A stretch of DNA of 64,000 nt from Candidatus Bathyarchaeia archaeon (GCA_049516875.1 JBEKSS010000001.1:320001-384000), one strand, 5' to 3'. Positions 458 through 62,709 are shown, counted from the first letter of the stretch. The notes: generated by a model not told the origin, from the letters alone. Made by a program: numbers and translations.

Positions 458-645
458 TAGCGCGCATGCGTGTTCCTAAAATGGTCAAAAATCGTCATAA
501 TTCCATTTTGCACGTTTCTGCCGCGTTCGAGGAAAACAAGTACCTATGAAGATCAAGGACAGATATTGAGCCCAAAACCCTGCCTAAACCATGAAACCCG
601 AATAAAAACCATTTTAGGCCAATTTCGGAACAAGCATGCGCGCTA
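458..645. mobile_element. MITE-like non-coding element with ~37-bp imperfect terminal inverted repeats starting TAGCGCGCATGC
   Basis: Left TAGCGCGCATGCGTGTTCCTAAAATGGTCAAAAATCG; right (reverse complement) TAGCGCGCATGCTTGTTCCGAAATTGGCCTAAAATGG; both flanking genes truncated at the ends. Confidence 0.65.
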
Positions 646-1201
646 TTCCTTTTCTGTCTTTAACGCTCAAAGTTATGTCTGTTCCTCCAGGAGAGGTAAC
701 CCTTGCTTGATTGGCTTTTGTAATCCACTCTGCGATTTTCCTCGTTTCCTCGTCTATCTCACGGTAGTCTGAAGTCATCGGTCCGCTGGGATAAAACATT
801 TCAGCGACAAACATAGGCATGCTTAGAACTCGCGTTCCAGCTTTGCAAGCGTTCACTCTAGCATCAGTGTGAGTCAATGAATAGGTCGTTATGGCGACCG
901 CCACGTCGGCACTTTTCATTTTGTCTTCAACTTCCTTTCCTGGATAGGTTCCGTGTTTGCCAATTGAGGGGTAGGTGAAGAACTTCGCTGTTTTTGGGAA
1001 ACTTTTCGGCCGCAATCTCGCTGACCGTCTTGGCAAGGATTGACCTTTCCATGACTTCAGCCAGCTTTGCGCTTATCTTGGTTTTCCATTCTTCAGCTGT
1101 AGGATTGTCGGTGATCACTACGATTTTTTCGCCGTCTTTCAGACCATGTTCACTTTGAGCATGTTGACGGTACCCTTAACAAGTTTCGCTTTGTCAATCA
1201 T
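646..1201 (-). pseudogene. Aminopeptidase-like (M29/leucyl aminopeptidase-like) pseudogene, two frameshifts, 3' truncated
   Basis: Pieces in different frames: MIDKAKLVKG..., DGEKIVVITDNPT..., KFFTYPSIGKHGTYP...SLTHT...RVTSPGGTDIT; ends at GCGCGCTA (638-645). Confidence 0.65.
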
Positions 1202-1311
1202 TTTGGTCACAGCATCATGGTTGCTTAAATATCCGTGAACTAGCTATGTTCAAAAAGCTTATAAGATTTCCGATATGCCCTTCTAGACAGAACCCCACGC
1301 GAGGTTAGATT

Positions 1312-1812
1312 GTGAAAGATGAGTCTTTAATGGATGCTATCAAGCAGCGGAGAAGCGTGCGGAGATACAAGGAGAAACCTTTTCCGATGGAAGAATTAAC
1401 TTCACTGGTCGAGGCGGCTCGTTGGGCTCCTTCTGCAGGAAACTCGCAGCCTTGGGAGTTTTTGCTGATAAACGATGAGGACATGCTGAGGGCCCTTAAG
1501 TCGGTGTCTCCAGGATGGCTCAAACAGGCTCCAGCGCTCGTAGTGACGTGTACAAACAAGAAAAGGAAGACGGACTGGAGCTTAATGGACGTTGGAGCGG
1601 CGATGCAGAACATCCTGTTGTACGCGCACTCTAGGGAGTATGGCTGTTGCCCAATCGGCAGTTTCGTAGTTGAGACGGTCAAAGAACTGTTGGAGTTGCC
1701 ACCGCATCTCGAGCCCGTGCTTTTCATTACTGTAGGGTATCCTGATGAGAAGCCACCAGCTACAAAGCGTTTGTCAACAGACGAGCTTGTTTTCAAGAGG
1801 GTTGGAAAGTGA
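1312..1812 (+). CDS. Nitroreductase family protein
   Basis: RRSVRRY and APSAGNSQPW motifs. Confidence 0.9.
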   Translation: MKDESLMDAIKQRRSVRRYKEKPFPMEELTSLVEAARWAPSAGNSQPWEFLLINDEDMLRALKSVSPGWLKQAPALVVTCTNKKRKTDWSLMDVGAAMQNILLYAHSREYGCCPIGSFVVETVKELLELPPHLEPVLFITVGYPDEKPPATKRLSTDELVFKRVGK

Positions 1813-2114
1813 CAACGAAGAAGGCGGATGATTATCTTTTTGAGATAACCTGCTTCGTGATAGCAAGTGCCGAGCGAGCAATAGGACCAGAGAGCGGCTA
1901 CGGAGCCTGCCGCCTCGTGCAGACCCTCTACATGCTGTCTTTCCTCCCAGATTACGTTGACATGAAGGGAAACGACTTGTTAATGAGGGTCAGGGCCTAT
2001 GTGGATGCGGATACTCAGAACTTCTGGCGTGAACCCCAGCTCAAGCAGTTTCTCGCAGAGCTGAGCCAGCAACTAGCGAAGGAGATCAAAAAACAGAAGA
2101 ATCTTGAAAAATAG
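1809..2114 (+). CDS. Small helical protein, DUF6092-like
   Basis: Overlaps upstream stop (GTGA); E-x-x-C...SA...YG..RL pattern as I recall for DUF6092. Confidence 0.5.
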   Translation: MTTKKADDYLFEITCFVIASAERAIGPESGYGACRLVQTLYMLSFLPDYVDMKGNDLLMRVRAYVDADTQNFWREPQLKQFLAELSQQLAKEIKKQKNLEK

Positions 2115-2158
2115 CGGCGTGCCCAAGTCTTAAATACCTTTTTTCGCAGATTAAGAGC

Positions 2159-3045: not shown

Positions 3046-4467
3046 ATGCAGGAAGATGCTCTGGCAGAAGAACTTGATTACATTTTTAATCCAAGGTCAA
3101 TCGCAGTGATTGGTGCCTCAACAGAACCAAAAAAACTCGGAAACAGAATATTGAATAACCTGATAAACAGAAAATATACCGGCAAGTTATTCCCAATAAA
3201 CCCGCGCGACAGGGAAATAATGGGCTTCCAAGCCTACTCTAAGGTTGTTGAGGTCCCGGAAACGATAGACGTAGCGGTAATCGTTGTGCCTGCGTCAGCT
3301 GTTCTGCAGGCCATGGAAGAATGTGTCAAGAAAGGTGTTAGAGGAGCTGTGATAATCACGTCAGGTTTTGCAGAAACAGGCGTAAAAGGAAGAGAGTTGC
3401 AGGAGAGAATGGCTGAGGTAGCACATAAAGGAGGATTAAGGTTTGTGGGGCCAAATTGCGAAGGAATCTTCAACGCATCAGCAAACGTAGATATGACATT
3501 CGCACCAAAATCCCCGAAAAAGGGAGGCATTTCATTCATTTCCCAAAGCGGGGCTATCGGGGCAAATACAATGTTTCGCTGGGGCGCTGAACGAGGCGTA
3601 GGATTCAACGTGTTTTGCAGTTCCGGCAACGAGGCCGATCTCAGCTCAGCTGATTACCTTCAATACGTCGGCCAAGACGAGGATACCAGAGTCGTCATGA
3701 TGTATGTTGAAGGAATAAAGAAAGGGAGGCTATTCTTTGAGGTAGCTAAGAGAACTTCACAAACGAAACCTATCGTACTGATGAAAGGGGGACAAACAGA
3801 GGCTGGAAGCAGAGCTGTATCATCGCACACTGGAGTTCTCTCAGGCTCGAGTGTCATTTTCGACACTGTCTGTAGACAGACGGGTATAGTGAAAGTTGAC
3901 GATGTTGACGAACTTTTCGATGTTTCTATGACGTTTGAAACTCAACCACTCCCTAAAGGAAGCAATGTTGGAATAGTGACAGGTGCAGGCGGTGGCATGG
4001 GAGTTGTTGCAGTTGATGCCTGCATAAAGCGAGAATTGTACGTCCCTGTATTCTCCGAGAACACCATTGCCCAGCTGAAAGCCAGTCTGCCTCCCTACGC
4101 TCCGGTCAACAATCCGGTCGATCTTACACCTCCCTTTGATCCCGCGCGCCTAGTCAAATGTACTGAAATAGTACTCCAAGACGAGAAAATAGACTCAGTG
4201 ATCTCAATGGGCTTTGGCTGGAGAACAGACATGGTTTCGGTTGAACTAGCGGCTGTTGAAGAATTCCTCGGGTTGAAAAAATACGGGAAACCAATCGTTA
4301 TGGTATCGGTCGCCAGCAAATGCGAATTTGAAACTTTGAGAAAGCTTGAAGCCGAAGGTATACCTGTTTTCCTTACGCCAGGAAAAGCCTCAAGGGCGAT
4401 TGCAGCTTTGGTTCAATATCAAAAATTCAAAAGCAAACAAAAAGGGTATTCTGAGACTCGCCTCTAG
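3046..4467 (+). CDS. acdA: ADP-forming acyl/acetate-CoA ligase alpha subunit
   Basis: PRSIAVIGAS CoA-binding domain, GPNC, SQSG, phospho-His in SHTG, NPVD. Confidence 0.9.
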   Translation: MQEDALAEELDYIFNPRSIAVIGASTEPKKLGNRILNNLINRKYTGKLFPINPRDREIMGFQAYSKVVEVPETIDVAVIVVPASAVLQAMEECVKKGVRGAVIITSGFAETGVKGRELQERMAEVAHKGGLRFVGPNCEGIFNASANVDMTFAPKSPKKGGISFISQSGAIGANTMFRWGAERGVGFNVFCSSGNEADLSSADYLQYVGQDEDTRVVMMYVEGIKKGRLFFEVAKRTSQTKPIVLMKGGQTEAGSRAVSSHTGVLSGSSVIFDTVCRQTGIVKVDDVDELFDVSMTFETQPLPKGSNVGIVTGAGGGMGVVAVDACIKRELYVPVFSENTIAQLKASLPPYAPVNNPVDLTPPFDPARLVKCTEIVLQDEKIDSVISMGFGWRTDMVSVELAAVEEFLGLKKYGKPIVMVSVASKCEFETLRKLEAEGIPVFLTPGKASRAIAALVQYQKFKSKQKGYSETRL

Positions 4468-5450
4468 CGAAGCGCGTCCTTGTTGACCAAGTTGACAGGT
4501 GTTTTGCCATTGAGTGCTCTGACAACGTCTTCGGCCAGGGTGACTATCATTTTGATTCTAGAGTCTTTTGTATGACCTGCAACATGTGGTGTCACAACCA
4601 AATTCTGCAGTTTGAGGATAGGGTCAGTTGCTCTAATCGGCTCTTCTTCAAAGACATCCAAGGCTGCGCCGGCTATTCTTCTGCCTTCTAATGCTGCATA
4701 TAAAGCTCTTTGATCCACTACTCCACCACGAGATGTGTTAATGAAGTATGCGGTTTTCTTCATCGCTTTGAATTCTTCTTCACCGAACATGCGCTCTGTC
4801 TCTTTTGCAAGAGCAACATGCACCGTTATGAAATCTGCTTCCTTTAGCAGAGTTTGAAGATCAGTGTACTCAATTCCAAGCTCCTTTTCTGCATCAGCCT
4901 TTCTTCTTCGACTCTGGTACACGATGCGCATGTTGAGGCCTTTTGCCTTCCGAGCAACAGCCATGCCTATCGTTCCTAAGCCCACTATACCAAGTGTCTT
5001 CCCAGCCAAGTCTATGTTTTTGGGAAGAAGCTTGTCTCTTATGCCCCAGTTTCCTTTCCTGACTTCTCTGTCGAATTCCAAAAGGTTCTTTGCCATCGCA
5101 AGGATCAAGCAGAGAACGTGTTCTGCCACTGAATCGGTGTTCATAACGGGCAGATTGACGACCATTATCTTCTTCCCAGTTGCCGCCACAACGTCTATGT
5201 TATCCACGCCTACCCCAGTTCTTGCTATCACTTTCAGCTTGTCGGCGCTCTCGATGATTCTTCCTGTGATCTTTGCCATGCGCACAACTATGGCGTCTGT
5301 GTCTTTTGCCTCTTTGATGAGATTGTCTTCAGATGTACCTGATGCTACATTGATTGTGCCCATTTTTCTTAGGATGTCAAGACCAGCATTGTCCACTAGT
5401 TCGATCAGGGGCTCAGTTAGTAATATCTTCATTTTTCGTTCTCCCAACAT
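4464..5450 (-). CDS. D-isomer-specific 2-hydroxyacid dehydrogenase
   Basis: GVGVDNID, GLGTIG, INTSRG, DVFEEEP, TPHVAG. Confidence 0.92.
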   Translation of the reverse strand: MLGERKMKILLTEPLIELVDNAGLDILRKMGTINVASGTSEDNLIKEAKDTDAIVVRMAKITGRIIESADKLKVIARTGVGVDNIDVVAATGKKIMVVNLPVMNTDSVAEHVLCLILAMAKNLLEFDREVRKGNWGIRDKLLPKNIDLAGKTLGIVGLGTIGMAVARKAKGLNMRIVYQSRRRKADAEKELGIEYTDLQTLLKEADFITVHVALAKETERMFGEEEFKAMKKTAYFINTSRGGVVDQRALYAALEGRRIAGAALDVFEEEPIRATDPILKLQNLVVTPHVAGHTKDSRIKMIVTLAEDVVRALNGKTPVNLVNKDALR

Positions 5451-9785: not shown

Positions 9786-11014
9786 CTTCTCATCTCAAGG
9801 AGTTTCTCATCGTATGGCGCTGTGGAAAGAACCTCATTTCCCCTTTCGGTTATCATGATTGTGTCCTCCAATCTCACACCTCCAACGCCGTGGACCGCGA
9901 CAGTAGGCTCCATTGAGAATATCATCCCCGGCTCTAGCTTGAACTTCACGAACTTCTGGTCACCGGTTAATACACGTTCCCCGATGAACGGGGCTTCTAA
10001 GCCAGCCACGCCTATACTGTGACCAAGCACACCGAAGTAAGCTTCTTTTTCGAACCCATGCTCCTTCATGACGTCTCTCGCGGCTTTGTTGACGTCCGTG
10101 TTGAGCGCTCCTGGCTTCATTACTTTGATGATGGTTTGTATTGAGTCGTATACGGTTCTGTAGATTTCTTTTTGTTTTTCAGTTGGATTTCCATGAATGA
10201 CGGTACGCGTCTGGTCTGAAAAGTATCCATTGAAGCACCCTCCAAGATCCAAGAACACTAATTCTCCTCTTCTTATCGGCTTGTCGGACGCAAACCTGTA
10301 GAGCGGCATCGTGTGATTCCCAGAGGCAATGATCAAGTTGCATTGAGGAACTTCCATTCCAAAGGAGTAGAGAATTCGCATTGCTTCGCCGAGCAGTTCA
10401 CATTCTCTCTTTCCAGATTGAATTAGACTTATGGTGCCTTCCAGGGCAAAGGATGCGATAGCGGAAGATACCCGCATCAGTTCTCTCTCCTCTGCTGTCT
10501 TTAAAACCCTTGCTTTTACGAAAACTTCGTCTCCATCGACGAAAGTTGCGTTCGGCAATGCCTGTTGCAGTCGTTGAGTCAGTCCGAACCGTGTGGCGTC
10601 TATCCCTATTCTGCCATCAGCAGCACCCATGCTGGTCAATTCCTTCTTGAACCCGTTTACTGCTGTTTTGAAAACTTCCAAGTCCTCCAAGACTGCAAGG
10701 GGTCGGATATCTTCTTTCTTGAGCCACGGCATCGTTGCTGTAGCGCGCGCCCAGTCGCCGCTTGCCACGTATAGAATCGGATCCTGATCTCTTGAGACAA
10801 TTGCGGCGTTCCTTGTGACTGCCATTCCGGTTGTCCACCACAATGGCCTATATGACGTGGTGTATCGAATGTTTTCGGGTCGGAACGCAAGAATAGCGTC
10901 GATTTCTTGTTCTTTCATCTGTTCCTTGAGTCTTGCGAGGCGCCCTTTCCTTAGTTTTTGAAAGTCTACGCGTTCTTCCCAATCGACACCAAACTGTCCA
11001 TATACATGCGACAT
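9782..11014 (-). CDS. M24 family (Xaa-Pro) metallopeptidase
   Basis: Metal ligands intact: LDLG, SDQTRT, GHSIG, MEP, RLEDT. Confidence 0.88.
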
Positions 11015-49412: not shown

Positions 49413-49421
49413 TCTCAATTG

Positions 49422-52768: not shown

Positions 52769-53130
52769 CTTGAACTCTCTGCTTCAGCTCTGCCACTCTT
52801 GTTTTATTAGATTTATGAAGCCTATGTACAAACAACAAATCTATATTCGACCGACCCGACAGTCTTGAAATACGACCTGATTCATTGCCACTTTGTCAAT
52901 GGACCAGTGAGACAATCATGGGAGAAAAAGTACCCATCAGCTTTGAACTGAACTTCGAATGACACCAAAGAAAAGCGTGGTCACACCACGCACCCGACAG
53001 TTCGCAACTGCCATCCAAAAACTATATTTCCAACATTGCACACCCTCATGCAATACAGTTGTACATAATGGGGCTGTGCTGGCTCCGAGAGATTCTGTGA
53101 AAAGGATGGCTGAGTGAGGTTGTGCTCCGA

Positions 53131-54096
53131 ATGATTCCGGTTGAAATCTCTGACGTCAGAAAATCGTACGGCGATCTGAAGGCCGTTGATGGAGTTTCCT
53201 TCTCGGTTAACGAGGGCGAAGTTTTCGCTCTTGTCGGCCCGAACGGCGCGGGTAAGACAACGCTGATAGAGATAATGGAAGGTTTGCGGAAACGAGACGA
53301 AGGTGCGGTAAAGGTGCTCGGTCTTGATCCGTGGGAAAACAGCTACGTGCTCCACAGGAGAATCGGGGTGATACCCCAGGACTTCACGTTCTTTGACAAA
53401 GCAAACCCGAGGGAGGCGGTGAAATACTACGCAGATCTCTTCGGTGTCACCGTTGACCCAGACGCGATCTTGAAAGAAGTCTTGCTGGACGATTCAGTCC
53501 GTGTCCTCTTCGAGAATCTTTCAGGAGGGCAAAAGCAGAAGATGGGTCTCGCGCTCGCGCTCGTGAATAACGCTGAGCTTCTGTTCCTCGACGAACCAAC
53601 CACGGGACTTGATCCGAACGCGAGAAGAGCTGTCTGGGACGTGATAAGGGGGTTGAAGAGTAAGGGCAGGACGGTGATTTTGACCACTCATTACCTTGAT
53701 GAGGCTGAGCAGCTTTCCGACAGAGTCGCCATCATGAATCACGGACATGTAGTGGCCATGGGAACCACTGAAGACATCATTGAAACTCACGGTTCGGGCG
53801 AAAGGCTGGAAGTCCACGGAACAGAGAAGCTAGCTGCCTACGTCAGGGCCAACACGGATCTGAAGACTGAATACAACGGCAAGGGTTTGATTAGCATAGC
53901 TATCAATCAAAAACACGATGCGTTAGCAGCCTTAACGGCCATCGAGCAGTCAGGGCTCGACTGGCATGATATTCACACACGCCGTGACAGTTTGGACGAC
54001 GTTTTTGTCAAACTTGTGAGCGGAACGATTGATGAGCACGGCGAGATCAGAGTTGAAAATGTAAGTGATAATTCACGTAATCAGCGGAGGCGCTAG
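53131..54096 (+). CDS. ABC exporter ATP-binding subunit
   Basis: GPNGAGKT, LSGGQ, LDEPTTGLD. Confidence 0.92.
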   Translation: MIPVEISDVRKSYGDLKAVDGVSFSVNEGEVFALVGPNGAGKTTLIEIMEGLRKRDEGAVKVLGLDPWENSYVLHRRIGVIPQDFTFFDKANPREAVKYYADLFGVTVDPDAILKEVLLDDSVRVLFENLSGGQKQKMGLALALVNNAELLFLDEPTTGLDPNARRAVWDVIRGLKSKGRTVILTTHYLDEAEQLSDRVAIMNHGHVVAMGTTEDIIETHGSGERLEVHGTEKLAAYVRANTDLKTEYNGKGLISIAINQKHDALAALTAIEQSGLDWHDIHTRRDSLDDVFVKLVSGTIDEHGEIRVENVSDNSRNQRRR

Positions 54097-54101
54097 GACG
54101 A

Positions 54102-55196
54102 ATGCCAAGTGCAAGAAGAATCGTGTCTGACCTTCGCGTATTCGGTCGCGGATACCTAAGAAATGCGGCAGGACTGTTCTTCGGCCTAATTTTCCCAGTC
54201 ATCCTCATACTCATCTTCGGCGCCATTTTCCAAAGCGGCTTTTCCGGCACGATAACACTCTACGTTCAAAACCACGACACTGGCCCTGTCTCCAACTCTT
54301 TCCTAGGCAACCTTACCCAAACAGGCACGGTTAGCCTGGTAAATGTGAGTAATTCTGAAAACTTTTCTCAATACCTCTCAGCTCATTCTGCCTCCGACGG
54401 AATAATCATCCCCGCAGATTTCTCGGCGAACTACATCAACGGCACGCCCTTCAACGTGACACTCTACGGCAACCCCACCCAGAGCTCCAGCCAAGTCGTG
54501 AGCGGAACGGTCAATGGAGTAATAAACGGGTTTAACCTTGGACGTTACGGCGGTTCACCAATCATCGGCGTAACGCAGACTACAGCCAACTCTCAAGTGA
54601 CCAAGTACATCGATTTCCTAGTTCCAGGCCTCATCGGTTTCGCGATACTCATCAGCCCCATGTTTTCCCTCGTAAACATATCCTCCGAGTACAAGAGAAT
54701 AAAACTCTTCAAACAGCTGTCGTTGACTCCGCTTACCAAGATGGAGTGGCTAGCCTCCAAGGTACTTTTCTACATCCTCCTCTCATCGGCGTCATTCTTG
54801 TTGATGACTGCCGTGGGCGTCATCGCTTTTGGCGCACACATCGCGCTCTCACCGTGGCTGGTACCGTTCCTAGTGCTGGGCCCGATGTTCTTCGCTTCGC
54901 TGGGCATGCTGGTGGGAACCATCTCAAAGAGCACCGAAACAGCCAGCGTCGTCGGAAACGTCATAACCTTCCCCATGATGTTCCTCTCCGGCACCTTCTT
55001 CCCAATCAGTCTCATGCCCACGTACCTGCAGGCTTTCGCACACGTCCTGCCACTGTTCTACATCGTCGACGGACTCAACGGCGTCATGATATACAACAAC
55101 TATGCACAGGTCACACTGGACCTCGTCGTGGTCGCGGTAATCACTGTTGTTGCCTTTGTAGCAGCAGCCAGACTATTCAAGTGGAGAGAAGACTAG
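54102..55196 (+). CDS. ABC-2 type permease with large extracellular loop
   Basis: YIDFLVPG, FLSGTFFP. Confidence 0.88.
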   Translation: MPSARRIVSDLRVFGRGYLRNAAGLFFGLIFPVILILIFGAIFQSGFSGTITLYVQNHDTGPVSNSFLGNLTQTGTVSLVNVSNSENFSQYLSAHSASDGIIIPADFSANYINGTPFNVTLYGNPTQSSSQVVSGTVNGVINGFNLGRYGGSPIIGVTQTTANSQVTKYIDFLVPGLIGFAILISPMFSLVNISSEYKRIKLFKQLSLTPLTKMEWLASKVLFYILLSSASFLLMTAVGVIAFGAHIALSPWLVPFLVLGPMFFASLGMLVGTISKSTETASVVGNVITFPMMFLSGTFFPISLMPTYLQAFAHVLPLFYIVDGLNGVMIYNNYAQVTLDLVVVAVITVVAFVAAARLFKWRED

Positions 55197-55263
55197 CCTC
55201 AGAAACAAGCACCCACTAGTCGTCGGATCAAGTTGAGCAGAGACAAAACAAGATAAGATTTTC

Positions 55264-55998
55264 TCAGCCAAGGCCTTTGTTTCCAAACAGACCTTGGTGG
55301 GTGAACGCCTCCGAATCACGGCGCACTCTCAGGCTTTTAACCGGTGCAGAGACGGGGTATCCCAGACGGAAGACAAAGGCAGTCTTCATGTATTCAGGGA
55401 CATTGAGAATTCGCTTCACCTCTTTCTCCACGGGGTTCGCGCTGAAGACACTCAACACCTGAACGCTAATCCCCAAAGACTGGGCCATGAGCCACATGTT
55501 CTCCATAACACAACCCAGGCTCATAATTCCCAAAACATCCCCCTCTGAAGCAGGAGCCCTCTTCCTAGCATCATAAACCACGATCAGCAGCACCGGACTA
55601 CCTCTAATCCTCTGGTTCAGGGGCGAAGGCCTGCTCTCACGAACGGCTTTGTCCAGCCTAGTAGGGTCCCTCCAATCGGACGGAAACACGGTGCCGAGGA
55701 TTCCAACCTTCTTTTGAAGTAACTCCTCTTCCGAGAACGAGAGCTGCTGATAGTTCTCTCGGATGAACGCTTCCGAAACACGAGATTTTATGTTTCCTAT
55801 CCTTTCCAGAAGCTCTTTATCATCAACGACGAGGATCTCGAAGTTCTGCATGTTGTGAGGTGTTGGCGCCCAACGCGCCGCCTCGATGATCTGCCTCAGG
55901 TTCTCCTTAGCCACTGGGTGATTCCGGTCGAAAGGAACTCTTGTGGACTGTCTTTGCTGGATGATTTTCAGGAGATCAGTCATGACGATCATGTCCAT
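55264..55998 (-). CDS. Nitroreductase family protein
   Basis: RQSTR, WAPTPHNMQ, ENMWL, RLGYP. Confidence 0.85.
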   Translation of the reverse strand: MDMIVMTDLLKIIQQRQSTRVPFDRNHPVAKENLRQIIEAARWAPTPHNMQNFEILVVDDKELLERIGNIKSRVSEAFIRENYQQLSFSEEELLQKKVGILGTVFPSDWRDPTRLDKAVRESRPSPLNQRIRGSPVLLIVVYDARKRAPASEGDVLGIMSLGCVMENMWLMAQSLGISVQVLSVFSANPVEKEVKRILNVPEYMKTAFVFRLGYPVSAPVKSLRVRRDSEAFTHQGLFGNKGLG

Positions 55999-56010
55999 CC
56001 AGCACGCGTG

Positions 56011-56757
56011 TTAGGAGTTTGCGTCGGCTCTTCTCTTCATCCAGTCGTGTGCAAGAATTTCTGCTTCTCCGCTTTCTATTCCTTCCAGTATCTTCTGCGC
56101 CACATATTCTGCGGTATCAGCTGGAAACGGGCCGGTGCCTTCTTGTTCCCTTTCATCAGGAATGGAGTCTTTAATGGTGTTTTTCTCGAAATTTGTGAGC
56201 GTCATGTACGGGTACACGACGCTGACGATGATGTTGTCTTTCTTTAATTCTTCCCTTGCAGTCAAGCTAATGCTGGCAAGCGCTCGTTTTAACGATGAAT
56301 ATGCGCCGTTTTCCGGCAAATACATCAGCGCAGTGCCAGAACTGATGTTGATAATCGTTCCTCCACCCTGTTTCCTCATGATGGGGATGACTTGCTGCAT
56401 GGCAACAAGAGGGCCGACCACGTCTAAGTCAAAAATACGACGAAAAGTGTCAACGTTAGTCTTCTCTACCGGAGCATCATATCCCTGACCCGCACAATTG
56501 ATTAGAACGTCAATCCTCCCCAAGTGCTCCACCGTTTCCGTAATCATCCTTTCGATTTCAAAAACCTTTGTCATATCAGCGGGAACTGCCAACGAGTTCG
56601 GAAGCTCAGCTGACAGTTGCTCCAACCTCTCCTTTGAGCGGGAGACAAGAGCCAGTTTCGCGCCTTGCTTAGCAAGAAGTCTCGCGGTCGCAAGACCGAT
56701 ACCTGAAGAAGCGCCAGTGACAATAACAACCTTATCTCGAACGTTCACAAAAACCAC
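56011..56757 (-). CDS. Short-chain dehydrogenase/reductase
   Basis: TGASSGIG, INCAG, NISS, YSSLK. Confidence 0.9.
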   Translation of the reverse strand: MVFVNVRDKVVIVTGASSGIGLATARLLAKQGAKLALVSRSKERLEQLSAELPNSLAVPADMTKVFEIERMITETVEHLGRIDVLINCAGQGYDAPVEKTNVDTFRRIFDLDVVGPLVAMQQVIPIMRKQGGGTIINISSGTALMYLPENGAYSSLKRALASISLTAREELKKDNIIVSVVYPYMTLTNFEKNTIKDSIPDEREQEGTGPFPADTAEYVAQKILEGIESGEAEILAHDWMKRRADANS

Positions 56758-57018
56758 TCCTTACTCTTCGGCCCGTACCGGTCTCCTTGACTTCACAGCT
56801 TCAACAACAAAACCCGTGGACACAATTCCACCGCATTAGACACGCCGCCAAGAACTATAAAAGAATTCCTTCTTCAAACCCAAAAACGTGCAGCGCACAC
56901 CCCAACCCCAAAGGTCCATGAACCCGTCACAAACCAAAGCAAAAGCCAAACTCCAAGAATCCAGCACGCCCCAAACTCACGACCCACCTCCAACAAACAC
57001 GAGCAGACGTCATCACCC

Positions 57019-57064
57019 TTTTGACACTCAAAGAAATCACGGATTGAGCACTCAAACACAAGGA
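57019..57064 (+). repeat. Single copy of the double-palindrome repeat
   Basis: TTTTGACACTCAAAGAAATCACGGATTGAGCACTCAAACACAAGGA. Confidence 0.85.
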
Positions 57065-57075
57065 TTGCGCCGTGT

Positions 57076-57978
57076 TCATGTTTTCTTGGGTTCGGGTGCT
57101 TTCAGCTTGAGGATGTCTGCGATGTTGGCTTTGGCGTCTATCTTGGGGGTGATTTTTCCTGTGCGGGACGTGAAGAGTGTGGTTACTCCGGGTCCGTGGC
57201 CTGCTGACACGCAGTTTGTGTGGACGACGATGCCGACGGAGACGGCGCCCTGTCTGTAGATTCGCCCGAACGAGTGGTCCGCGTCCGTGATGGCCACTAG
57301 GTCGCCTAGCCTTAGGCTGTCGAGCTTGTACTGTTTTATGGCTTTTTCGTCGAAGAGCTGGATGTCGTAGTCTCCGGAGTACGTGTTGTCTGAGCCGAGT
57401 CCTGAACCCATGATGGCGGCTGGAACCACATGCGTCACCGGTACCTCCAGCTTGTCCGCTTTCCCTTTGGGGTTGAGGGCTTCGAGGAACCGCGGATCCA
57501 TGTTCATGACGGTTACGTCTCGGAAGTCCAGGAGCTTCAGGCCGACGCCGTAGGCTTTTACGAGGAACTTATCGCCGAGCATCAGCTTCTCCATGACTTT
57601 GGGCTGAACGTCCACGAGGACGTGTTCTATGCCACCGTGCTTGCCCGTGACGACGCCCTTGGCGCCCTTCGCCTCGCCCGTGACCACGATGGCCTCGTTT
57701 CCAACGCATGAAAGCACGTTGAACGCGACGTTCGCGCCCTGCCCGAACCGGACATCGTTCTCCTTGTTCTCGACACTCACGCCGGGCTCTACGTGGTCAG
57801 CCTCCCACCCGCAGGCCGGATCGCCAACTCTTACGTTGTAGGTGATGCCGCCGACGCCGGGCAAGACCAGGGGGTGGCCCTGAGCGGAAATCCTGTAAAC
57901 ACCCCTGCCGAAAACTGGGCTGACTGCCTCACCGAAAACGGAAAGTTTGACCAGCCTGTCAACGTTGGTCCTCAGCAT
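57076..57978 (-). CDS. DUF4438 family protein
   Basis: PGVGGITYNV, DHVEPGVS, GKHGG, GSGLG, GHGPG. Confidence 0.7.
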   Translation of the reverse strand: MLRTNVDRLVKLSVFGEAVSPVFGRGVYRISAQGHPLVLPGVGGITYNVRVGDPACGWEADHVEPGVSVENKENDVRFGQGANVAFNVLSCVGNEAIVVTGEAKGAKGVVTGKHGGIEHVLVDVQPKVMEKLMLGDKFLVKAYGVGLKLLDFRDVTVMNMDPRFLEALNPKGKADKLEVPVTHVVPAAIMGSGLGSDNTYSGDYDIQLFDEKAIKQYKLDSLRLGDLVAITDADHSFGRIYRQGAVSVGIVVHTNCVSAGHGPGVTTLFTSRTGKITPKIDAKANIADILKLKAPEPKKT

Positions 57979-58169
57979 CAACACATTCCTCCCGTCAGAG
58001 TGACTGCATCCATAAGTGGAGGCATATAAGATTTGGCGCGCATCGCGAGGAGGAAAGGCTCTTTTGTGCTCTTTATCTGGTGTTAGCAAGTCTTAAATTA
58101 GACCTTATCTTTTCTGTTGAGTGAACTCAAATCTCTTCGAAGCATGAGTTGACTGCGTGGCTGAACAAC

Positions 58170-58757
58170 ATGTCTGAAATCGGGTTAAGACCTAAGATGC
58201 TGGTCAAAGACGTCATGAGCAGCCCAGCGATAACTATAGAAGAAAACGCGTCTGCAAACCGTGTCGCAAAGCTTATGGAAAAACACGATTTGGGCTGCGT
58301 AATAGTGACCTCCAACGATGGAAAACCAATCGGAATAATAACCGAGAGAGATCTCGTCCTGAGAGTGCTGGCCAAGAACGCCAAGCCAGACACGCTCGAG
58401 GCCAAGGAAGTCATGACGTCGCCTCTTATCACCATAGAGCCTGACGCGACGATAACCGAGACGGCTAGAAGAATGAGCAGGCTGAACATTAGAAGGTTGG
58501 GAGTCGTGTACAGGGGGCAGCTCGTCGGCATAATCTCGAGCAAGGACGTGCTCGGCGTCATGCCTGAACTGCTTGAAACGATCCAGGAGAAAGCCCTCAT
58601 AGAGAGCGAGAACATGGCTGAGCAGGAGCACGAGGAATCCGCTCCGCTTGCGGGTAACTGCGACCACTGCGGAGTCTGGTCCGACAGCCTGACAGAGGTC
58701 AACGGCGAGTTCCTCTGTGAAGACTGCAAGGTTGAGCTTGAAGAGAGCGAGGAGTGA
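58170..58757 (+). CDS. CBS-domain protein with C-terminal Zn finger
   Basis: VKDVMS, GIITERD, CDHCG...CEDC. Confidence 0.88.
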   Translation: MSEIGLRPKMLVKDVMSSPAITIEENASANRVAKLMEKHDLGCVIVTSNDGKPIGIITERDLVLRVLAKNAKPDTLEAKEVMTSPLITIEPDATITETARRMSRLNIRRLGVVYRGQLVGIISSKDVLGVMPELLETIQEKALIESENMAEQEHEESAPLAGNCDHCGVWSDSLTEVNGEFLCEDCKVELEESEE

Positions 58758-59548
58758 GAGGAGATCTTTTGCGTGTCAGAGAAATCATGGATGGAAAGCA
58801 TCCGGCCATCTACATGGATGAGCTCGCCACAAAAGCCCGTGCGATGATACGCGACTTCAACCTTAGAATTCTGCCCGTGACGGATGGGGACAAGAGGCTG
58901 CTTGGAAAAGTTTCCAGGCGCGACGTGATGATCATATCCTCGTCCAAGTCTTCGATTCTTGTCAAGGGATTGATGACCGCTGCAAAGCACGTGGCAATGG
59001 TCGATGATGACGTGATGGCAACGGTTAAGACCATGCTCAGAGTGGACGTGTGGTGTGCGCCGGTTGTCACCTCATCTCAGGACGGAACTTACCGGGGAGT
59101 GTTGGGGCTGGAGAGCTTCATAGAGAAGCAGATCGAGACGAGTCCTGAAAAGTTCGCGACAGAGGTCGGGGAGATAATGACCAGGGACGTTGTGACGTGT
59201 TCGCCGGAAGACGGGGTTGAGCGCATCTGGCGCCTGATGCAGGAGAGGCGTTTCGCCGGTCTGCCGGTGGTGAAGAACGGCAAGCTGGTGGGCATCGTGA
59301 CGCACAAGGATCTGCTGCAAAGCGGCGCTGTTCTGCCGACGTTTGAGTCTAAGAAGGGACGTTTTTCGCCGAGAATCTCGTCGGTGATGAAGGCGAACCT
59401 CGTGGCCGTGGAACCTTCGGTGAAGGCGATTAGGGTGGCCAAGGTTATGGTTTCCAAGGACATTGGAAGAGTTCCGGTTAAAGATGAGGGCGGCAGGCTT
59501 GTGGGTATTGTTGACCGCGAGGACATTGTTCGCCTGACGGTGAAATAG
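58754..59548 (+). CDS. Four-CBS-domain protein
   Basis: Repeated LPV...LVGIV...D. Confidence 0.88.
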   Translation: MRGDLLRVREIMDGKHPAIYMDELATKARAMIRDFNLRILPVTDGDKRLLGKVSRRDVMIISSSKSSILVKGLMTAAKHVAMVDDDVMATVKTMLRVDVWCAPVVTSSQDGTYRGVLGLESFIEKQIETSPEKFATEVGEIMTRDVVTCSPEDGVERIWRLMQERRFAGLPVVKNGKLVGIVTHKDLLQSGAVLPTFESKKGRFSPRISSVMKANLVAVEPSVKAIRVAKVMVSKDIGRVPVKDEGGRLVGIVDREDIVRLTVK

Positions 59549-59559
59549 GGGGAGAACGT

Positions 59560-60468
59560 TTGAGCAGGGAGGGTTTCAGGAGGAGGATAAGGGGGAGGGG
59601 TCCCATGGACTTGAAGGTTCATCGGGCGAAGAAGCGTGACGGCGAAATCTTGACCGTGGCGAAGAGTCCGGTTGTGATGGTGGCGCCGACCACGCCGGTT
59701 TACGATGCGATTCAGTTGATGGCGAAGAAGGGTTTTCGTCGGTTGCCGATAGCCAACGCGGGAACCAGGCATTTGGAGGGGATAGTGACGGCCATGGACA
59801 TCGTTGACTATTTGGGCGGGGGCAGTAAGTTTGAGATGGTTCGGCGGAGGTTTGGTGGGAACTTTTTCAAGGCGATTAACGAGCCGGTAAGGCTGGTGAT
59901 GACACAGGACGTGGTGTCGGTGAGGACGTCTGCGAAGATAAGCGAGGCGATTGGGAGGATGAAGGAGTCGAACTTGGGCGGGTTGCCGGTGGTGGATGAT
60001 GAGGGCAGCGTGAAGGCGATAATCACTGAACGGGACATTGCGAACCTTTTCGCTGACAGGACGAGCGGCGTGAAAGTCGCAGAGCTGATGTCGGAAAAAG
60101 TTATCACGGCGTTGCCGAAGACGACGATTTTCGAGGCGGAGAGGACGATGGCGACGCAGGGCTTCAGGAGGCTGCCGATAGTGTCGGACGGCAGTGTGGT
60201 GGGTATAATAACGGCGATGGACATCGTGCGGTTCTTCGGCTGCGGAGAAGCGTTTGCCTATCTGCGTTCTGGGACCATAATACAGGTTCTGAACAACCCT
60301 GCGCTTGAGATAGCATCGAAGACGGTTGTAACGGTGGAGCCGGACTTGGATGTGGGACAGGCGGCGAAGGTTATGCGGGAGAAGAACATTGGCGCCATGC
60401 CCGTTGTGCAGAACGGAAAACTCGTTGGCATAATTACGGAAAGAGACTTTTTCAAGATAATCGAGTGA
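59560..60468 (+). CDS. Four-CBS-domain protein
   Basis: GFRRLPI twice, GIITERD. Confidence 0.88.
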   Translation: MSREGFRRRIRGRGPMDLKVHRAKKRDGEILTVAKSPVVMVAPTTPVYDAIQLMAKKGFRRLPIANAGTRHLEGIVTAMDIVDYLGGGSKFEMVRRRFGGNFFKAINEPVRLVMTQDVVSVRTSAKISEAIGRMKESNLGGLPVVDDEGSVKAIITERDIANLFADRTSGVKVAELMSEKVITALPKTTIFEAERTMATQGFRRLPIVSDGSVVGIITAMDIVRFFGCGEAFAYLRSGTIIQVLNNPALEIASKTVVTVEPDLDVGQAAKVMREKNIGAMPVVQNGKLVGIITERDFFKIIE

Positions 60469-60502
60469 ACCGTTTCCAATAGCCTGTGAGGCTTCAGATG
60501 CT

Positions 60503-60785: not shown

Positions 60786-61082
60786 TTGCCGTTTAAGCGT
60801 AAGAGTCGTGGTAGGTCTAAGGGTGGTAAGGGCAGCAGCGGTTCTGTTCAGTGTGCCAGTTGCGGAGCGATGGTGCCGCGGGACAAGGCGAAGAAGGTTA
60901 CGAAGAGGCTTTCTTTCGTTGATTATGCCTTGGCTAAGGAGTTGCGGCAGAAGGGCACGTACATTGCCGTGCCGTCTGACACGAAGTACTACTGCGTCTC
61001 ATGTGCGGTGCACCGCGGAGTCGTGAAGGTTAGGGCTGAGAACGAGCGTCGCATTCGCACGAGGCCCGGAAGAAGATTTTAG
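60786..61082 (+). CDS. rps26e: 30S ribosomal protein S26e
   Basis: KRKSRGRSKG, C..CG..VPRDKA, YCVSCAVH. Confidence 0.95.
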   Translation: MPFKRKSRGRSKGGKGSSGSVQCASCGAMVPRDKAKKVTKRLSFVDYALAKELRQKGTYIAVPSDTKYYCVSCAVHRGVVKVRAENERRIRTRPGRRF

Positions 61083-61693
61083 CTTTCAGTTTCCTTTTTC
61101 TTTGTTTTGCCGTAAACGTGGAGGCTTCTCTGCAGGACGGTCAGGTTTGAGAACACCGCGAGCAGAATTATGCCCGCGTTCATCACCGTCGTCGGCTGCC
61201 AAAACAGGGCCGTCAAGCTTGCCGCGAGCAGTATGATGATGCGTTCGGCTCTTTCTGCCAAGCCGACGGATTCCATCTTGATTCCGGCCGCTTCGGCCCT
61301 TGCACGACTGTAGCTGACGAGCAGGGAACCAACAATTGCGATCATGCCCCACAGAGGGTAGCACAGGCCGCCCAGGATTATGCCGATGTAGACGGCAGCG
61401 TCAGCGTATCTGTCTAGCACGGAGTCTAGAAAGCCGCCGAAAACCGTTGCCTGCCCGTAGAGCCTCGCGACTATTCCGTCCAGCGCATCGCAGAAGCCTG
61501 ATAGGAGAAGCAGAACGGTGGCGAGCAGGAGATAGAGCAGCTGGTTCTGCCATTCTGCATAGGTGAGGGCTGAGAGGAAAGCCAGTGCGGTACCGATGCC
61601 GGTGATGATGTTAGGAGTCAAACCTATCCGGTGGGCTGCTCTTGCCTCGGCCGCAAGCATCTGCTGGACTTTCTGCTTCAGTTTCGTGAGCAT
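61079..61693 (-). CDS. pgsA: CDP-alcohol phosphatidyltransferase (archaetidylinositol phosphate synthase-like)
   Basis: TPNIIT, DALDGIVAR...G.FLDSVLDRYAD, SYSRARAE. Confidence 0.85.
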   Translation of the reverse strand: MLTKLKQKVQQMLAAEARAAHRIGLTPNIITGIGTALAFLSALTYAEWQNQLLYLLLATVLLLLSGFCDALDGIVARLYGQATVFGGFLDSVLDRYADAAVYIGIILGGLCYPLWGMIAIVGSLLVSYSRARAEAAGIKMESVGLAERAERIIILLAASLTALFWQPTTVMNAGIILLAVFSNLTVLQRSLHVYGKTKKKETES

Positions 61694-61767
61694 TCGCGGC
61701 TGTTTCTCCAGCACGCATTTATTTAAGCTGCAGTTATGTAAAGGAGTTAGGTTTAAAGGTGTTTGGA

Positions 61768-62061
61768 ATGATTGACGTCACGACGGTTAAGATTGACGGC
61801 AAGGCTTGCTTAGGGTTGAAAGTTGATTTACCCGAGAGCCCACCCTTGCTATTGATGGTGGCGGAGAAAGGCTTCGTGATGTGCGGCTTCCTGAACATTG
61901 AAGCCGCTGAAAGACTGGGCGTAGCCGCCGCCATGGTCAGCGGAGTGAAAACCTTTGAAGACGTACTCAACGCACAGGTCAAGGCTGTAACGACCAAAAC
62001 GAAGAATTCGGGCGTCGAGGTCGGAATGAAAGGTTCCGAAGCCCTGAAGCATATGTTCTAG
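61768..62061 (+). CDS. YunC/DUF1805 family protein
   Basis: KGFVMCGFLN, AAMVSGV, GMKG.EAL. Confidence 0.8.
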   Translation: MIDVTTVKIDGKACLGLKVDLPESPPLLLMVAEKGFVMCGFLNIEAAERLGVAAAMVSGVKTFEDVLNAQVKAVTTKTKNSGVEVGMKGSEALKHMF

Positions 62062-62165
62062 AATTCTGTATCCGACGGCTTTTTGGATAGTCATGGCAAC
62101 TCCCTCTTCCGAGTCTCAGCGCCCTAATCTTGTATCTGCAAATTCCTTCACGCACGCCTTGATTT

Positions 62166-62709
62166 GCGCGCGCGCTAAGATGGTTGAGCCGTCCGGAGCC
62201 ATCCATCTGAAGAAGTAGTATGGGAAGACTGTTGTGTCGTTCCAGAGCATTTTCTGCGTCAGAAAGAATTCCATGCTGGATTTTCTCATTATCTGGGGCA
62301 GAGTGCAAGCGTAACCGAACGAGTCGGGAAACCATGCAACCTTCACGTCAACGTTGAACCTTTCCCAAAAGTATCTTTTCCCATAAAGGAACTGTCTTAC
62401 GAAGGATTCACCGGAAGGCATGTTGCCGTCAGGTTCAACCCATGTCCCGCCAACGGTCTCCCAACGTCCCTCCTCCACCCTCTTCTTCACTTTCTCGAAG
62501 GTTTCAGGGTACTTCTCCTCCAACCACTTATAGTATTGAGCGCTGCTCTGGCAGAAGCAGAAGTCATGATATTTCTCCATCAGTCTGAGGATCGTTTCAC
62601 AGGTATCGTGAAAGACCTCGATTGTTTCGCTGAATGTCCATAACCACGCGGCGTCCAAATGGCTGTGCCCTAAGAAGTAACATGTTCTACCGACATTTTT
62701 TGAGCCCAT
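62166..62709 (-). pseudogene. GH38 alpha-mannosidase, N-terminal fragment
   Basis: GHSHLDAAWLW, GESFVRQF.YG, WFPDSFG, FRWMAPDGS; homology stops at GCGCGCGCGC (62166-62175). Confidence 0.85.

Follow-up and report, generated by a model that had tools for sequence, protein, structure and literature searches.

Short alternating GC tracts are a real, strongly non-random and lineage-specific feature of the Bathyarchaeia genome (a peat MAG of 2.43 Mb) to which the window, the 64,000-nucleotide stretch of DNA analysed here, belongs, and our comparisons support their coincidence with synteny breaks, strain breakpoints and truncated genes. The explanation that we favour, at somewhat less than an even chance, is that the tracts are the tips of insertion sequences (IS) and MITEs together with the solo remnants of these tips, and that they mark rearrangements caused by these elements. 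A sequence-only reading of the window had proposed that the tracts mark gene truncations and module junctions made by an undescribed recombination system. That interpretation is partly supported; whether the label 'undescribed' applies depends on what the solo tracts are, passive remnants of IS and MITEs or the sites of a separate system.

The window contains 13 matches to GCGCGCGC (the overlapping pair at 62166/62168 counted), against an expectation of 0.94, which agrees with the earlier estimate of less than one per window; this number was reached by none of 100 dinucleotide shuffles of the window. The ten non-genic and two genic sites (10743 and 22257) named by the sequence-only reading are all present, as are its eight shorter tracts (460, 638, 22994, 33662, 47163, 49533, 50602 and 58036). 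Both genic copies of GCGCGCGC are real, but a copy in the other phase, CGCGCGCG, at 19771 had been missed. In total there are 28 alternating GC runs of at least 6 nt in the window. The genome-wide count that had been suggested as a check yielded 447 copies of GCGCGCGC versus 3-10 for each of the other G+C-only 8-mers, and other dinucleotide repeats are not enriched (ATATATAT 21, ACACACAC 32). The motif can be written as (T)A-(GC)3-5-T(A): exact run lengths include 212 runs of precisely GCGCGCGC (8 nt) and 48 of (GC)5 (10 nt), and the 416 runs of at least 8 nt have an A upstream in 58% and a T downstream in 56% of the cases. Only this core of 8-12 bp recurs, the flanks being unique at 314 of 388 tracts. 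Tract lengths change in steps of 2, from (GC)3 to (GC)5, with non-coding counts of 216 for (GC)3 (which includes element ends), 181 for (GC)4 and 35 for (GC)5. Non-coding solo (GC)4 tracts have A and T as direct neighbours in 71% and 65%, and TA in 33% and 31%. Across 206 solo (GC)4 tracts, the occurrence of TA on one side is statistically independent of that on the other (23 both, 47 and 40 one side, 96 none).

The enrichment goes together with a confinement to variable non-coding DNA. According to our own crude gene caller, which assigns 80.4% of the genome to coding sequence, 359 copies of GCGCGCGC are intergenic, 84 are coding and 4 lie at a gene edge, i.e. 81% are non-coding or at an edge, and some 80% of the copies sit in the 20% of the DNA called non-coding. 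The type of spacer has no effect (0.79, 0.61 and 0.68 tracts per kb for convergent, divergent and tandem spacers). When contig C1 of the relative G004 was compared to the genome of the window (G000), the predicted association with synteny breakpoints was indeed found: a tract of at least 7 nt is present at 37 of the 47 synteny breaks, in 18 of the 40 indel gaps and in one of the 16 conserved gaps (Fisher p = 4e-5). A functional motif under selection (a site for protein binding or regulation, a former of Z-DNA or cruciforms, part of a terminator or a DNA uptake sequence) would fit the strongly non-coding location and the conservation of the 12-mer palindrome in several families of the class. 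Nevertheless, we consider such a role very improbable, as the tracts are nearly missing from conserved spacers and concentrated in variable ones (1/16 versus 55/87), prefer neither promoter-side nor terminator-side spacers, have a patchy distribution among lineages and erode by single transitions, a mutational decay that is visible between close strains. The DNA uptake sequence in particular was rejected: it needs enrichment in the core and maintenance, whereas the tracts favour variable gaps and decay.

Comparison of the window with three metagenome contigs that are 95-99.9% identical to it (L206, L207 and L208) placed strain breakpoints to the base at the tracts 38264, 40511-18 and 43433-41; the breaks of L206 and L207 relative to the window are at 38264, 40519, 43415/43417 and 43439/43440. 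The first two of these tracts belong to an 8-kb mosaic of tract-separated modules (33248-41257) that is not found in the relatives G004 and G002 (57 bp there). The homology of L206 and L207 stops exactly at the tract GCGCGCGCG (38264-38272). The module that follows (38273-40510, plus strand), with a C-terminal cas1 fragment, cas2, UPF0175, DUF3368 and a cas4 fragment, is missing from both contigs and found in L208, and in sequencing run X7 the word depth is about 9 within it versus about 250 outside. After the tract GCGCGCGC at 40511-40518 the homology of L207 picks up at 40519, the junction in L207 itself being without a tract. The next module (40519-41237, plus strand), which carries a gene of the metallo-beta-lactamase fold (40544-41221), is present in L207 and absent from L206. 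It ends at an old tract (41238-41245) that has the same position in G004, G002, L206 and L207, while the DNA on its left differs. Further downstream (43418-43441), a 23-bp filler (43418-43440), the 3' part of which is formed by the tract CGCGCGCGC (43433-43441), stands in place of about 494 bp found in L206 and L207 (similar in G004), and in run X3 the joint 43417->43439 has a depth of 120 of 318.

An assembly, library or sequencing artefact, which the sequence-only reading had named among the outcomes that would refute its interpretation, is hardly credible and can be taken as refuted for practical purposes; we found nothing in its favour. Contigs from other samples and studies cross the junctions with 0 differences (X4, 4133 bp, 37366-41498; X3, 2720 bp, 37853-40572), and L208 is 99.9% identical across 34851-45753. 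Moreover, the enrichment is shared by four other species of the genus and by 13 further genomes of the class, which include one-contig and five-contig assemblies.

Two genes are truly cut at tracts, as had been claimed. The cas1 gene (38307-38729), right after the tract at 38264, retains only positions 191-283 of the 283 of the Pfam profile. At 62166-62175 a (GC)5 tract is followed by TAA and then by an N-terminal GH38 fragment (62116-62709, minus strand; a 197-aa ORF with positions 2-173 of 270 of the N-domain profile), the homology of which to an intact gene in G003 begins at 62179. That gene encodes at least 680 aa, continues past the cut point and reads GGGCGAG|GATGG there, without a tract. 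The truncation of cas4 was equally confirmed (profile positions 2-112 of 160). For the other proposed cut genes the identities were not confirmed: the 'flavin reductase' (456) has no more than a weak, sub-threshold match (E 4.5e-4; positions 110-140 of the 153 of the profile) and the 'methyltransferase' at 50962 has no supporting Pfam match. The gene at 614-1036 (minus strand) is truncated, since its counterparts in G003 and G004 extend past 645, but it lacks a Pfam match and its naming as an aminopeptidase is thus not confirmed.

The solo tract GTA-GCGCGCGC-TAAGG (2884-2891) begins at the G of the TAG stop codon of a racemase gene, where relatives have GTAGACC and GTAGCTC without a tract. It bounds on the right a block (645-2884) that is bounded on the left by a MITE; this block lies at a different locus in G003 (C1:275749-277981) and G004 (C1:56930-59176), its homology ending at 645 and at 2884/2885. 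The solo tract GTA-GCGCGCGC-TAGG (21431-21438) is within a 381-bp stretch where G004 has 5.4 kb, and two tracts 6 bp apart, GCGCGCGC ttcttt GCGCGCGCG (50963-50985), lie in an 8.5-kb stretch where G004 has 1.7 kb; another solo tract, GAA-GCGCGCGC-AGC, is at 51070-51077. Of the genic copies, GCGCGCGC at 10743-10750 lies within an intact gene and is kept in G003, CGCGCGCG at 19771-19778 is one substitution away in relatives, and at 22257-22265 relatives differ by substitutions alone. A block inverted relative to all four genus relatives (57095-60471) has no tract of at least 8 nt at its ends.

The same genomes contain elements with GCGCGC tips. The supposed junctions at 460 and 638 turned out to be the two ends of one MITE of 184 bp (460-643; inverted repeats GCGCGCATGCGTGTTCC.../...GGAACAAGCATGCGCGC, TA on both sides). 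It fits this class in being short, multi-copy and in having the inverted repeats of an autonomous element: about 13 complete copies (181-185 bp) are present in the genome, all four genus relatives have copies at 74-96% identity, and the same inverted repeat is found in an autonomous IS of 1082 bp (G002:C7:99619-100700), the transposase of which is 43% identical. The sequence-only reading had found no candidate enzyme in the window. However, elsewhere in the genome a DDE transposase gene (C7:36829-37749) lies in an IS (G000:C7:36804-37906) that ends in GCGCGC, often with TA before it. The proposed transposase acting in trans on a palindromic GCGC core is compatible with these findings. The 307-aa ORF matches DUF772 (PF05598, 35.7 bits; cut-off 23.1) and DDE_Tnp_1 (PF01609, 52.7 bits; cut-off 23) but falls below all NCBIfam IS equivalogs (best IS1182, 80.6 vs 270; IS5_4, 65.5 vs 140). 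On the basis of these profile scores the enzyme is a distant IS5/IS1182 relative to which no named family can be assigned. The ends GCGCGCTGGCTTGTCCC and GGGACAAGSCAGCGCGC recur at 80 loci of related IS among the Bathyarchaeia MAGs, with GCGCGC kept at both ends and variable outer flanks. The outer flanks of 111 IS ends have A in 59% and TA in 32%, and the latter value equals that of the solo tracts (31-33%). Three places show partial element remnants: 43418-43440 in the window, G000 C4:14181-14199, and C1:274479 with the sequence TTA-GCGCGC-ATGTG. The first of these matches the IS inverted repeat GCGCGCTGGCTTGTC at 12 of 15 bases, by eye and in an ambiguous alignment.

Considering these elements, the tracts of (GC)3-5 may represent the outermost tips of a Bathyarchaeia IS group of about 1.1 kb, with a DDE transposase of IS5/IS1182 architecture, and of its MITEs. 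The inverted repeats read 5'-GCGCGC-(W)KGBNTGTYCC..., and they are usually preceded by A, in many cases by TA. The majority of the tracts in the window would then be solo tips, left after loss of an element or after joining of one end to other DNA. As GCGCGC repeats itself both directly and in inverted orientation, the joining of two tips would, depending on the register, result in (GC)3, (GC)4 or (GC)5. Breaks made by the elements or by the transposase could lead to adjacent deletions, inversions and the movement of DNA between two elements, so that solo tips would come to lie at module edges and at the ends of cut genes, to decay afterwards through point mutation. It is the origin of the solo tracts from elements, and the route, that we infer here. 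Some observations argue against such an origin. No orthologous site was found at which one genome has a solo tract and another a MITE or IS: in the search for occupied, scarred and empty states only same-spacer and no same-base cases emerged, the species being too diverged and the strain contigs without an element. Among the three strains, several tract junctions are polymorphic within 15 kb and none of these contains an intact element. In addition, slippage between tips should favour (GC)3, yet (GC)4 is as common, and the independence of TA on the two sides of solo (GC)4 is not expected from simple excision of an element that duplicates TA.

The latter independence would suit another proposal, which we regard as doubtful: that TA(GC)4TA serves as the minimal site for a Bathyarchaeia cut-and-join system so far undescribed, in which an enzyme in trans, a nuclease or recombinase, joins DNA at tA|Ta and thereby shuffles gene-sized modules within and between strains, or that the motif is a minimal transposon end. 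GC-tipped segments would be excised, inserted and exchanged, with IS and MITEs as one kind of cargo or as mimics or targeters of the site. If this were true, the enzyme would be the DDE transposase where present and unknown or extrachromosomal in genomes like G080, and the IS and MITEs would be merely the self-encoding members of the system. It is in line with the tract position that stays fixed in G000, G002, G004, L206 and L207 while the adjoining DNA changes, with the replacement of DNA to the left or right of a tract, the boundary being exactly at the tract edge, with the tract junctions that vary among strains 95-98% identical and hold no intact element, and with a 2.1-kb stretch in G100 that contains a transposase gene and is enclosed by two solo tracts which are not its inverted repeats. 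On the other hand, no candidate enzyme was found, the tracts erode by point mutation instead of being maintained, and 8-12 bp is very short for the site of a recombinase or transposase. The absence of a tract at 40519 in L207, where G000 has one, indicates that a site need not have existed beforehand on both partners, and IS and MITEs with identical tips and flank preference are a simpler source.

At a deletion junction of G000 (C1:424022-424074) a tract is present, while the relative contains about 560 bp of other DNA at this place and is free of tracts. Such tract-free relatives, the length steps of 2 and the 8-10-nt runs at 9 of the 111 IS ends would also be explained by repair, an option that we find improbable: broken ends would be joined via a short self-complementary GC filler, made by tailing and annealing or through a host nuclease that repeatedly cuts at GCGC-type sites, followed by fill-in and ligation, and the IS family would merely prefer such targets. 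The IS copies of G135 in GC-type contexts (..GC|IS|GC..) instead of TA point the same way. Filler synthesis does not lead one to expect A/T, often TA, beside the tract, nor does it fit the lack of enrichment of any other dinucleotide repeat; the C5 methyltransferase partner (PF00145) was not found above cut-off in any of the five genus genomes, and the MITE ends are nearly always exactly 6 nt of GC run, whereas insertion into tracts should have given extended runs.

The comparison with known systems is closest for the IS5/IS1182 group, given a DDE_Tnp_1 domain with N-terminal DUF772, a length of about 1.1 kb, terminal inverted repeats and multiple copies, and short, putatively non-coding derivatives that share the inverted repeats. 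IS are known to cause deletions and rearrangements beside their ends. The elements described here differ in that the transposase scores under every NCBIfam equivalog cut-off, the tips consist of repeated GC dinucleotides, and neither a clear target duplication of fixed length nor a clean empty site was seen. The solo tips, in hundreds, exceed the elements about ten-fold; to our knowledge such a surplus has not been reported, and our literature searches returned no report of it. Excision of Tc1/mariner-type transposons leaves a footprint in which a few bases of the tip and their complement are enclosed by TA on both sides and which is always palindromic, and footprints of TA transposons pile up with every move and mark broken genes. 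Although TA-GCGC-GCGC-TA has this canonical form, the transposase is from another superfamily, TA on one side does not depend on TA on the other, and no site was seen for which one strain has a scar and another strain the empty state. Furthermore, of the seven IS copies of 1117 bp in G111 (four (near-)identical at 1115-1117/1117, three about 92% identical at 1026-1029/1117) four have TA on both sides, while the other three lack it on one side, with unmatched flanks and no matching duplication.

The likeness to HIP1 (GCGATCGC) of cyanobacteria, drawn in the sequence-only reading, consists in a palindrome of 8 bp, rich in G+C, that certain lineages contain in exceptionally high numbers. HIP1 occurs throughout genes too. 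It is linked to CGATCG methylation (PMC6604393). Here the copies lie in variable and overwhelmingly non-coding DNA, and the suggested search for a methyltransferase gave no PF00145 match above the cut-off in the genus, which makes the analogy weak; a HIP1-like palindrome was rejected on these two grounds. Integron cassette arrays, also invoked, share the edging of modules by a recurring short palindrome and a content that varies by strain. The tracts do not fit this class, since the modules are gene fragments (cas1, cas4, GH38) rather than whole promoterless genes and the site is 8-12 bp long, without a structured attC. REP/BIME and Correia repeats resemble the tracts in being short, palindromic and intergenic, in reaching hundreds of copies and in their link to a transposase in trans, but measure 20-150 bp with conserved internal sequence, whereas the tracts share nothing beyond their core.

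The distribution among genomes bears on both the element and the cut-and-join explanation. In the five genus genomes tract counts are 98, 29, 87, 69 and 115, against 0-9, and the inverted-repeat pattern occurs 40, 8, 25, 5 and 64 times, against 0 in 25 of 26 other relatives, a co-occurrence that supports the element explanation. Within the class sample only 5 of 14 tract-rich genomes have at least five inverted-repeat matches, which speaks against tracts as IS tips. The same holds for two tract-rich genomes without such a transposase: G080, assembled as one contig of 2.0 Mb, contains 94 AGCGCGCGCT and 39 TAGCGCGCGCTA and has no inverted-repeat pattern, no homologue of the IS transposase, no PF01609/PF13358 match and no recurrent sequence adjoining TAGCGCGC, and G089 (131 tracts) likewise has neither a homologue nor a PF01609/PF13358 match. 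These genomes, G153 and others favour the cut-and-join proposal. Conversely, and again to the disadvantage of the element explanation, G135 and G154 do have the IS (28 and 10 ends), yet show 0 TAGCGCGCGCTA and no enrichment over control; their IS copies are TA-flanked in 0/9 and have GC/GC flanks in 2/9 cases.

The alternating G/C runs, hereafter tracts when they are of the form (GC)3-5, are far more frequent in the window than its composition predicts. The word GCGCGCGC occurs 13 times, where 0.94 copies are expected, and none of 100 dinucleotide-preserving shuffles attained 13. The excess that the sequence-only reading had claimed site by site is thereby confirmed, as are the shorter tracts it listed, all of which are among the 28 alternating runs of six or more in the window. 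Across the source genome (2.43 Mb in 20 contigs, 47.2% G+C) we counted 447 copies of GCGCGCGC and 223 of CGCGCGCG; other G+C-only 8-mers have 3-10 copies each, and ATATATAT and ACACACAC are present 21 and 32 times, respectively. The run lengths do not show a geometric fall-off: GCGCGCGC makes up the whole of 212 runs and (GC)5 the whole of 48, and the runs of eight or more (n=416) are preceded by A in 58% and followed by T in 56% of cases.

Genome-wide, 359 of the 447 copies of GCGCGCGC are intergenic, 84 are coding and 4 lie at a gene edge according to a crude, self-written gene caller, which was trained with codon usage and made 2289 calls (80.4% coding). This agrees with the earlier claim that the tracts are found mostly outside genes; by the same caller, other G+C-rich 6-mers are non-coding in 11-17% of cases. 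The non-coding DNA contains 807 (GC)2, 216 (GC)3, 181 (GC)4, 35 (GC)5 and one (GC)6. No preference of the tracts for convergent, divergent or tandem spacers was seen in the source genome, which argues against a role as promoter or terminator, and we consider it very improbable that the tracts represent a motif maintained by selection. A GCGC methyltransferase had been put forward as a further check. No C5 methyltransferase scored above cut-off in any of the five genus genomes, and such an enzyme was therefore rejected as the origin of the motif for the genus.

The enrichment follows lineages. The five species of the genus have 98, 29, 87, 69 and 115 copies of AGCGCGCGCT, as against 0-9 in 26 further genomes from its family and order; a reversed control pattern has 0-6 copies. 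In a survey of 151 genomes sampled evenly across the class, all with a completeness of 80% or more, 14 genomes spread over five families were tract-rich, i.e. had 13 or more copies and a control count of five or less, a cut-off that was set post hoc with the data already seen. Three of the tract-rich genomes carry 36, 39 and 21 copies of the full 12-mer TAGCGCGCGCTA and none of the control. The sequence-only reading had allowed that the junctions might be unspanned, and hence an artefact of assembly or library. In fact, Logan contigs from other samples and studies bridge window junctions with 0 differences, namely a 4133-bp contig of run X4 (37366-41498) and a 2720-bp contig of run X3 (37853-40572); uncovered parts and joints that had less than 30 on one side (e.g. 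43415 to 47551 in run X7) were excluded as evidence. Considering these contigs together with the enrichment in other species of the genus and genomes of the class, an artefact can practically be dismissed. The tracts are a lineage-specific feature.

A comparison of the window with the four genus relatives revealed a conserved backbone with absent or different stretches at 22880-29245, 33248-41257, 43417-47229 and 48543-57095. Block ends lie within ~15 bp of the tracts at 2884, 38264, 41238, 43433 and 62166; one block is inverted relative to the relatives and has no tract at its ends. For the 387-kb contig C1 of the relative G004, only 47% of which can be aligned to the source genome, we left out overlapping HSPs and those shorter than 150 bp, classified each gap between one match and the next, and scored tracts of seven or more in either genome. 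A tract was present in 1/16 collinear gaps of equal length, as against 18/40 collinear gaps of unequal length and 37/47 synteny breaks (Fisher p = 4e-5 for the first class versus the other two pooled). Thus, the tracts belong to variable DNA and not to conserved spacers, and the proposed coincidence of synteny breakpoints with tracts was found. Within the interspecies aligned blocks, which are mostly coding, tracts vary by substitutions only. Such blocks include none of the window's intergenic (GC)4, and base-level 'empty sites' across species are therefore ambiguous. Within the source genome just five paralogue pairs span a tract, two of which represent the overlap between contig ends: C7:239414-239535 and C8:1-122 are identical over 122 bp, including a (GC)5 tract, and the two contigs thus overlap. 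Insertions of 0.8-2.2 kb between direct repeats of 13-45 bp were observed at C1:259939-262116 and C1:393694-395217 of the source genome and at C1:23269-24112 of G004, one of them with TA(GC)4TA just inside its left edge; these could reflect att-like integration or deletion between repeats.

The claim that unrelated genes are cut at tracts proved correct for cas1, which covers only positions 191-283 of its 283-position profile and begins just after the tract at 38264, and for GH38, whose N-domain match (2-173 of 270) ends at the tract at 62166. In the relative G003 the GH38 gene is intact: its reading frame of 680 aa or more crosses the cut point without interruption, with neither tract nor GCGC there. 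The same claim is not supported for the 'flavin reductase' at 456, which has a weak match only, and the 'methyltransferase' at 50962, which has no match.

Between close strains the association can be followed to the base. We retrieved three contigs from metagenomes with a 30-mer of the window. One of these (L208) is 99.9% identical to the window at 34851-45753. The second (L206, 95-96% identical) follows the window over 37587-38264, then has 119 bp, 41259-43417, 494 bp and 43440-45153; the third (L207, 95-98%) consists of 34751-38264, 878 bp, 40519-43415, 497 bp and 43439-49393. Four of the six breakpoints of L206 and L207 coincide exactly with a tract edge (38264 twice, 40519 and 43439/40), and the remaining two are 13-16 bp off a tract. 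The module between the tracts at 38264 and 40511 contains a C-terminal cas1 fragment, cas2, a UPF0175/DUF3368 pair and a cas4 fragment; the breakpoints on either side identify it as strain-specific, and its word depth in run X7 is ~9 versus ~250 outside. At its junction with 40519, L207 has no tract, so that the 40511 tract arrived together with the arrangement of the source genome. A 23-bp filler at 43418-43440, running into a tract that ends at 43441, stands in place of ~494 bp found in L206, L207 and, in similar form, G004. The tract at 41238 occupies the identical place in G004, the relative G002, L206 and L207 with different leftward DNA in each, and is old. Near 43958 the source genome and L208 have GCGCACGC, versus GCGCGCGC in L206 and L207, which is a case of decay. 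Upstream of a conserved block the window has a unit GCGCGCGC-N21-CGCGCG (41238-41277), present as a single copy in L206 (781-815). The reverse complement of L207 has a partial left copy (3799-3830; tract and spacer, lacking CGCGCG) and a diverged full right copy (5291-5330) that bracket inserted DNA; judged from this layout, they look like a duplicated attachment site. Just past the tract at 43433, a 125-aa ORF (43566-43943, plus strand) matches the IS1595-type transposase zinc ribbon PF12760 with 25.6 bits (cut-off 25.4).

Two kinds of mobile element carry the motif at their tips. The tracts at 460 and 638, which had been taken for separate junctions, are the two ends of one 184-bp MITE (460-643) with inverted repeats GCGCGCATGCGTGTTCC... 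and ...GGAACAAGCATGCGCGC and TA on either side; homologues of the gene at 614-1036 (minus strand) in G003 and G004 run on past the MITE end. The source genome has ~13 complete MITE copies of 181-185 bp and other size variants. It also has one full copy and one fragment of an IS5/IS1182-like element (C7:36804-37906, 1103 bp) with the related ends GCGCGC-TGGCTTGTCCC. The 307-aa protein of this IS has DUF772 and DDE_Tnp_1 above Pfam cut-offs and lies under every cut-off of the NCBIfam IS equivalogs. An IS that shares the MITE's own inverted repeat is found in G002 (C7:99619-100700). For the inverted-repeat pattern, the counts in the five genus genomes are 40, 8, 25, 5 and 64, and 25 of 26 other relatives have none. 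In 80 related IS loci of Bathyarchaeia MAGs, GCGCGC is preserved at both ends and the outer flanks are variable. A 4-bp CTAG-type or a 3-bp target duplication for the MITE was rejected, as the flanks of the copies do not fit; three of the seven IS copies in the class genome G111 lack TA on one side and have no matching duplication, and TA thus does not appear to be a simple target duplication. An 8.7-kb hot spot in the source genome (C9:103500-112200) holds three complete MITEs, one more MITE end and at least ten solo tracts, including GCGCGC-TTA-GCGCGCGC. The 599-kb contig C1 of G111 has five TAGCGCGCGCTA sites, four of which are either enclosed by or adjacent to a pair of IS copies located at 531 kb and 587 kb; this suggests local clustering of tracts and IS at 531-588 kb. 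Literature judged by title or the start of the abstract yielded nothing relevant on the motif or these IS.

The solo tracts resemble the tips of these elements. At the IS ends of the 80 loci (n=111), A lies outside the tip in 59% and TA in 32%; non-coding solo (GC)4 in the source genome are flanked by A/T in 71%/65% and by TA in 33%/31%. The outer flanks of both agree. Where relatives are readable, the boundary is TA and not GCGC, in one case GTAG|ACC versus GTA-(GC)4-TAAGG and in a second TTAG|GAC versus TTA-GCGCGC-ATGTG. Partial remnants were also seen, in which one inverted-repeat tip is fused to a few bases of its partner; the 43418-43440 filler is, from its sequence, a possible further example. 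As GCGCGC is at once an inverted repeat and a direct one, an element lost when its tips were joined would leave (GC)3-5 behind.

Nevertheless, several observations weaken the derivation of solo tracts from element tips. There are tract-rich genomes without the IS: G080, a single 2.0-Mb contig with 94 AGCGCGCGCT, has no inverted-repeat pattern, transposase homologue, PF01609 or PF13358 hit, nor a recurrent sequence adjoining TAGCGCGC, and G089, with 131 tracts, is likewise without either transposase. Conversely, G135 and G154 have many IS copies, which are not TA-flanked, but 0 TAGCGCGCGCTA and no enrichment. Only 5/14 tract-rich genomes have five or more inverted-repeat matches, versus 5/137 other class genomes (Fisher p = 7e-5 was computed with 6/14, an over-count; with 5/14 the association is somewhat weaker, and the relatives are non-independent). 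Around solo (GC)4, TA on one side is independent of TA on the other (n=206: 23 with both, 87 with one and 96 with neither), and, as stated above, three of seven G111 copies lack TA on one side. No orthologous site was seen where one genome has an element and a second has a solo tract at the identical base. Of the tract pairs at most 45 bp apart (n=65), most have spacers unlike the inverted repeat.

The most economical account, which we advance tentatively, is that the IS/MITE family is responsible: the elements would provoke rearrangements, where solo tips stay behind and pile up as scars. The sequence-only reading was partly right: the tracts do mark cut-and-rejoined DNA, and a trans-acting transposase with GCGCGC ends exists in the genome; the separate system it proposed is not the account we prefer. 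Such an independent cut-and-join system would fit the tract-rich genomes without IS, as well as the fixed-pivot behavior that tracts show when close strains are compared, and is unlikely but worth serious consideration. That the tracts are a signature of repair seems distinctly improbable.

Bathyarchaeia are abundant, uncultured archaea of sediment and peat, and to our knowledge little is known about how their genomes change. Here the strain-level events (insertions, deletions and gene truncations) are flagged with single-base precision by a palindrome of 12 bp. This palindrome is a simple sequence tag for locating the flexible part of the genome and, because it decays by transitions, for dating rearrangements. 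Should the tracts prove to be scars left by an IS/MITE family of the cut-and-paste type, they would form an unusually clear case of footprint accumulation in prokaryotes and would imply that these archaea perform end-joining repair; as sites of a separate system, they would represent a new mechanism of module exchange. For annotation, many 'genes' adjoining tracts should be regarded as fragments.

Two further genes of the window deserve mention. The thermosome gene (29190-31102; Pfam profile 70-488 of 490) is split into ORFs 29548-29796 and 29741-31102, with ~104-107 bp missing at 29755 that are present in all four genus relatives; judging by the sequence, this reflects either a pseudogene or a fault in the assembly. 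The TATA-binding protein gene (47309-47878, minus strand) adjoins an Alba gene (48131-48418, minus strand). The multi-copy block 47309-47890 was ruled out as a mobile element, as it is a TBP paralogue; each genus genome has many such paralogues, which share 80-85% nucleotide identity, and G004 has them in eight or more places.
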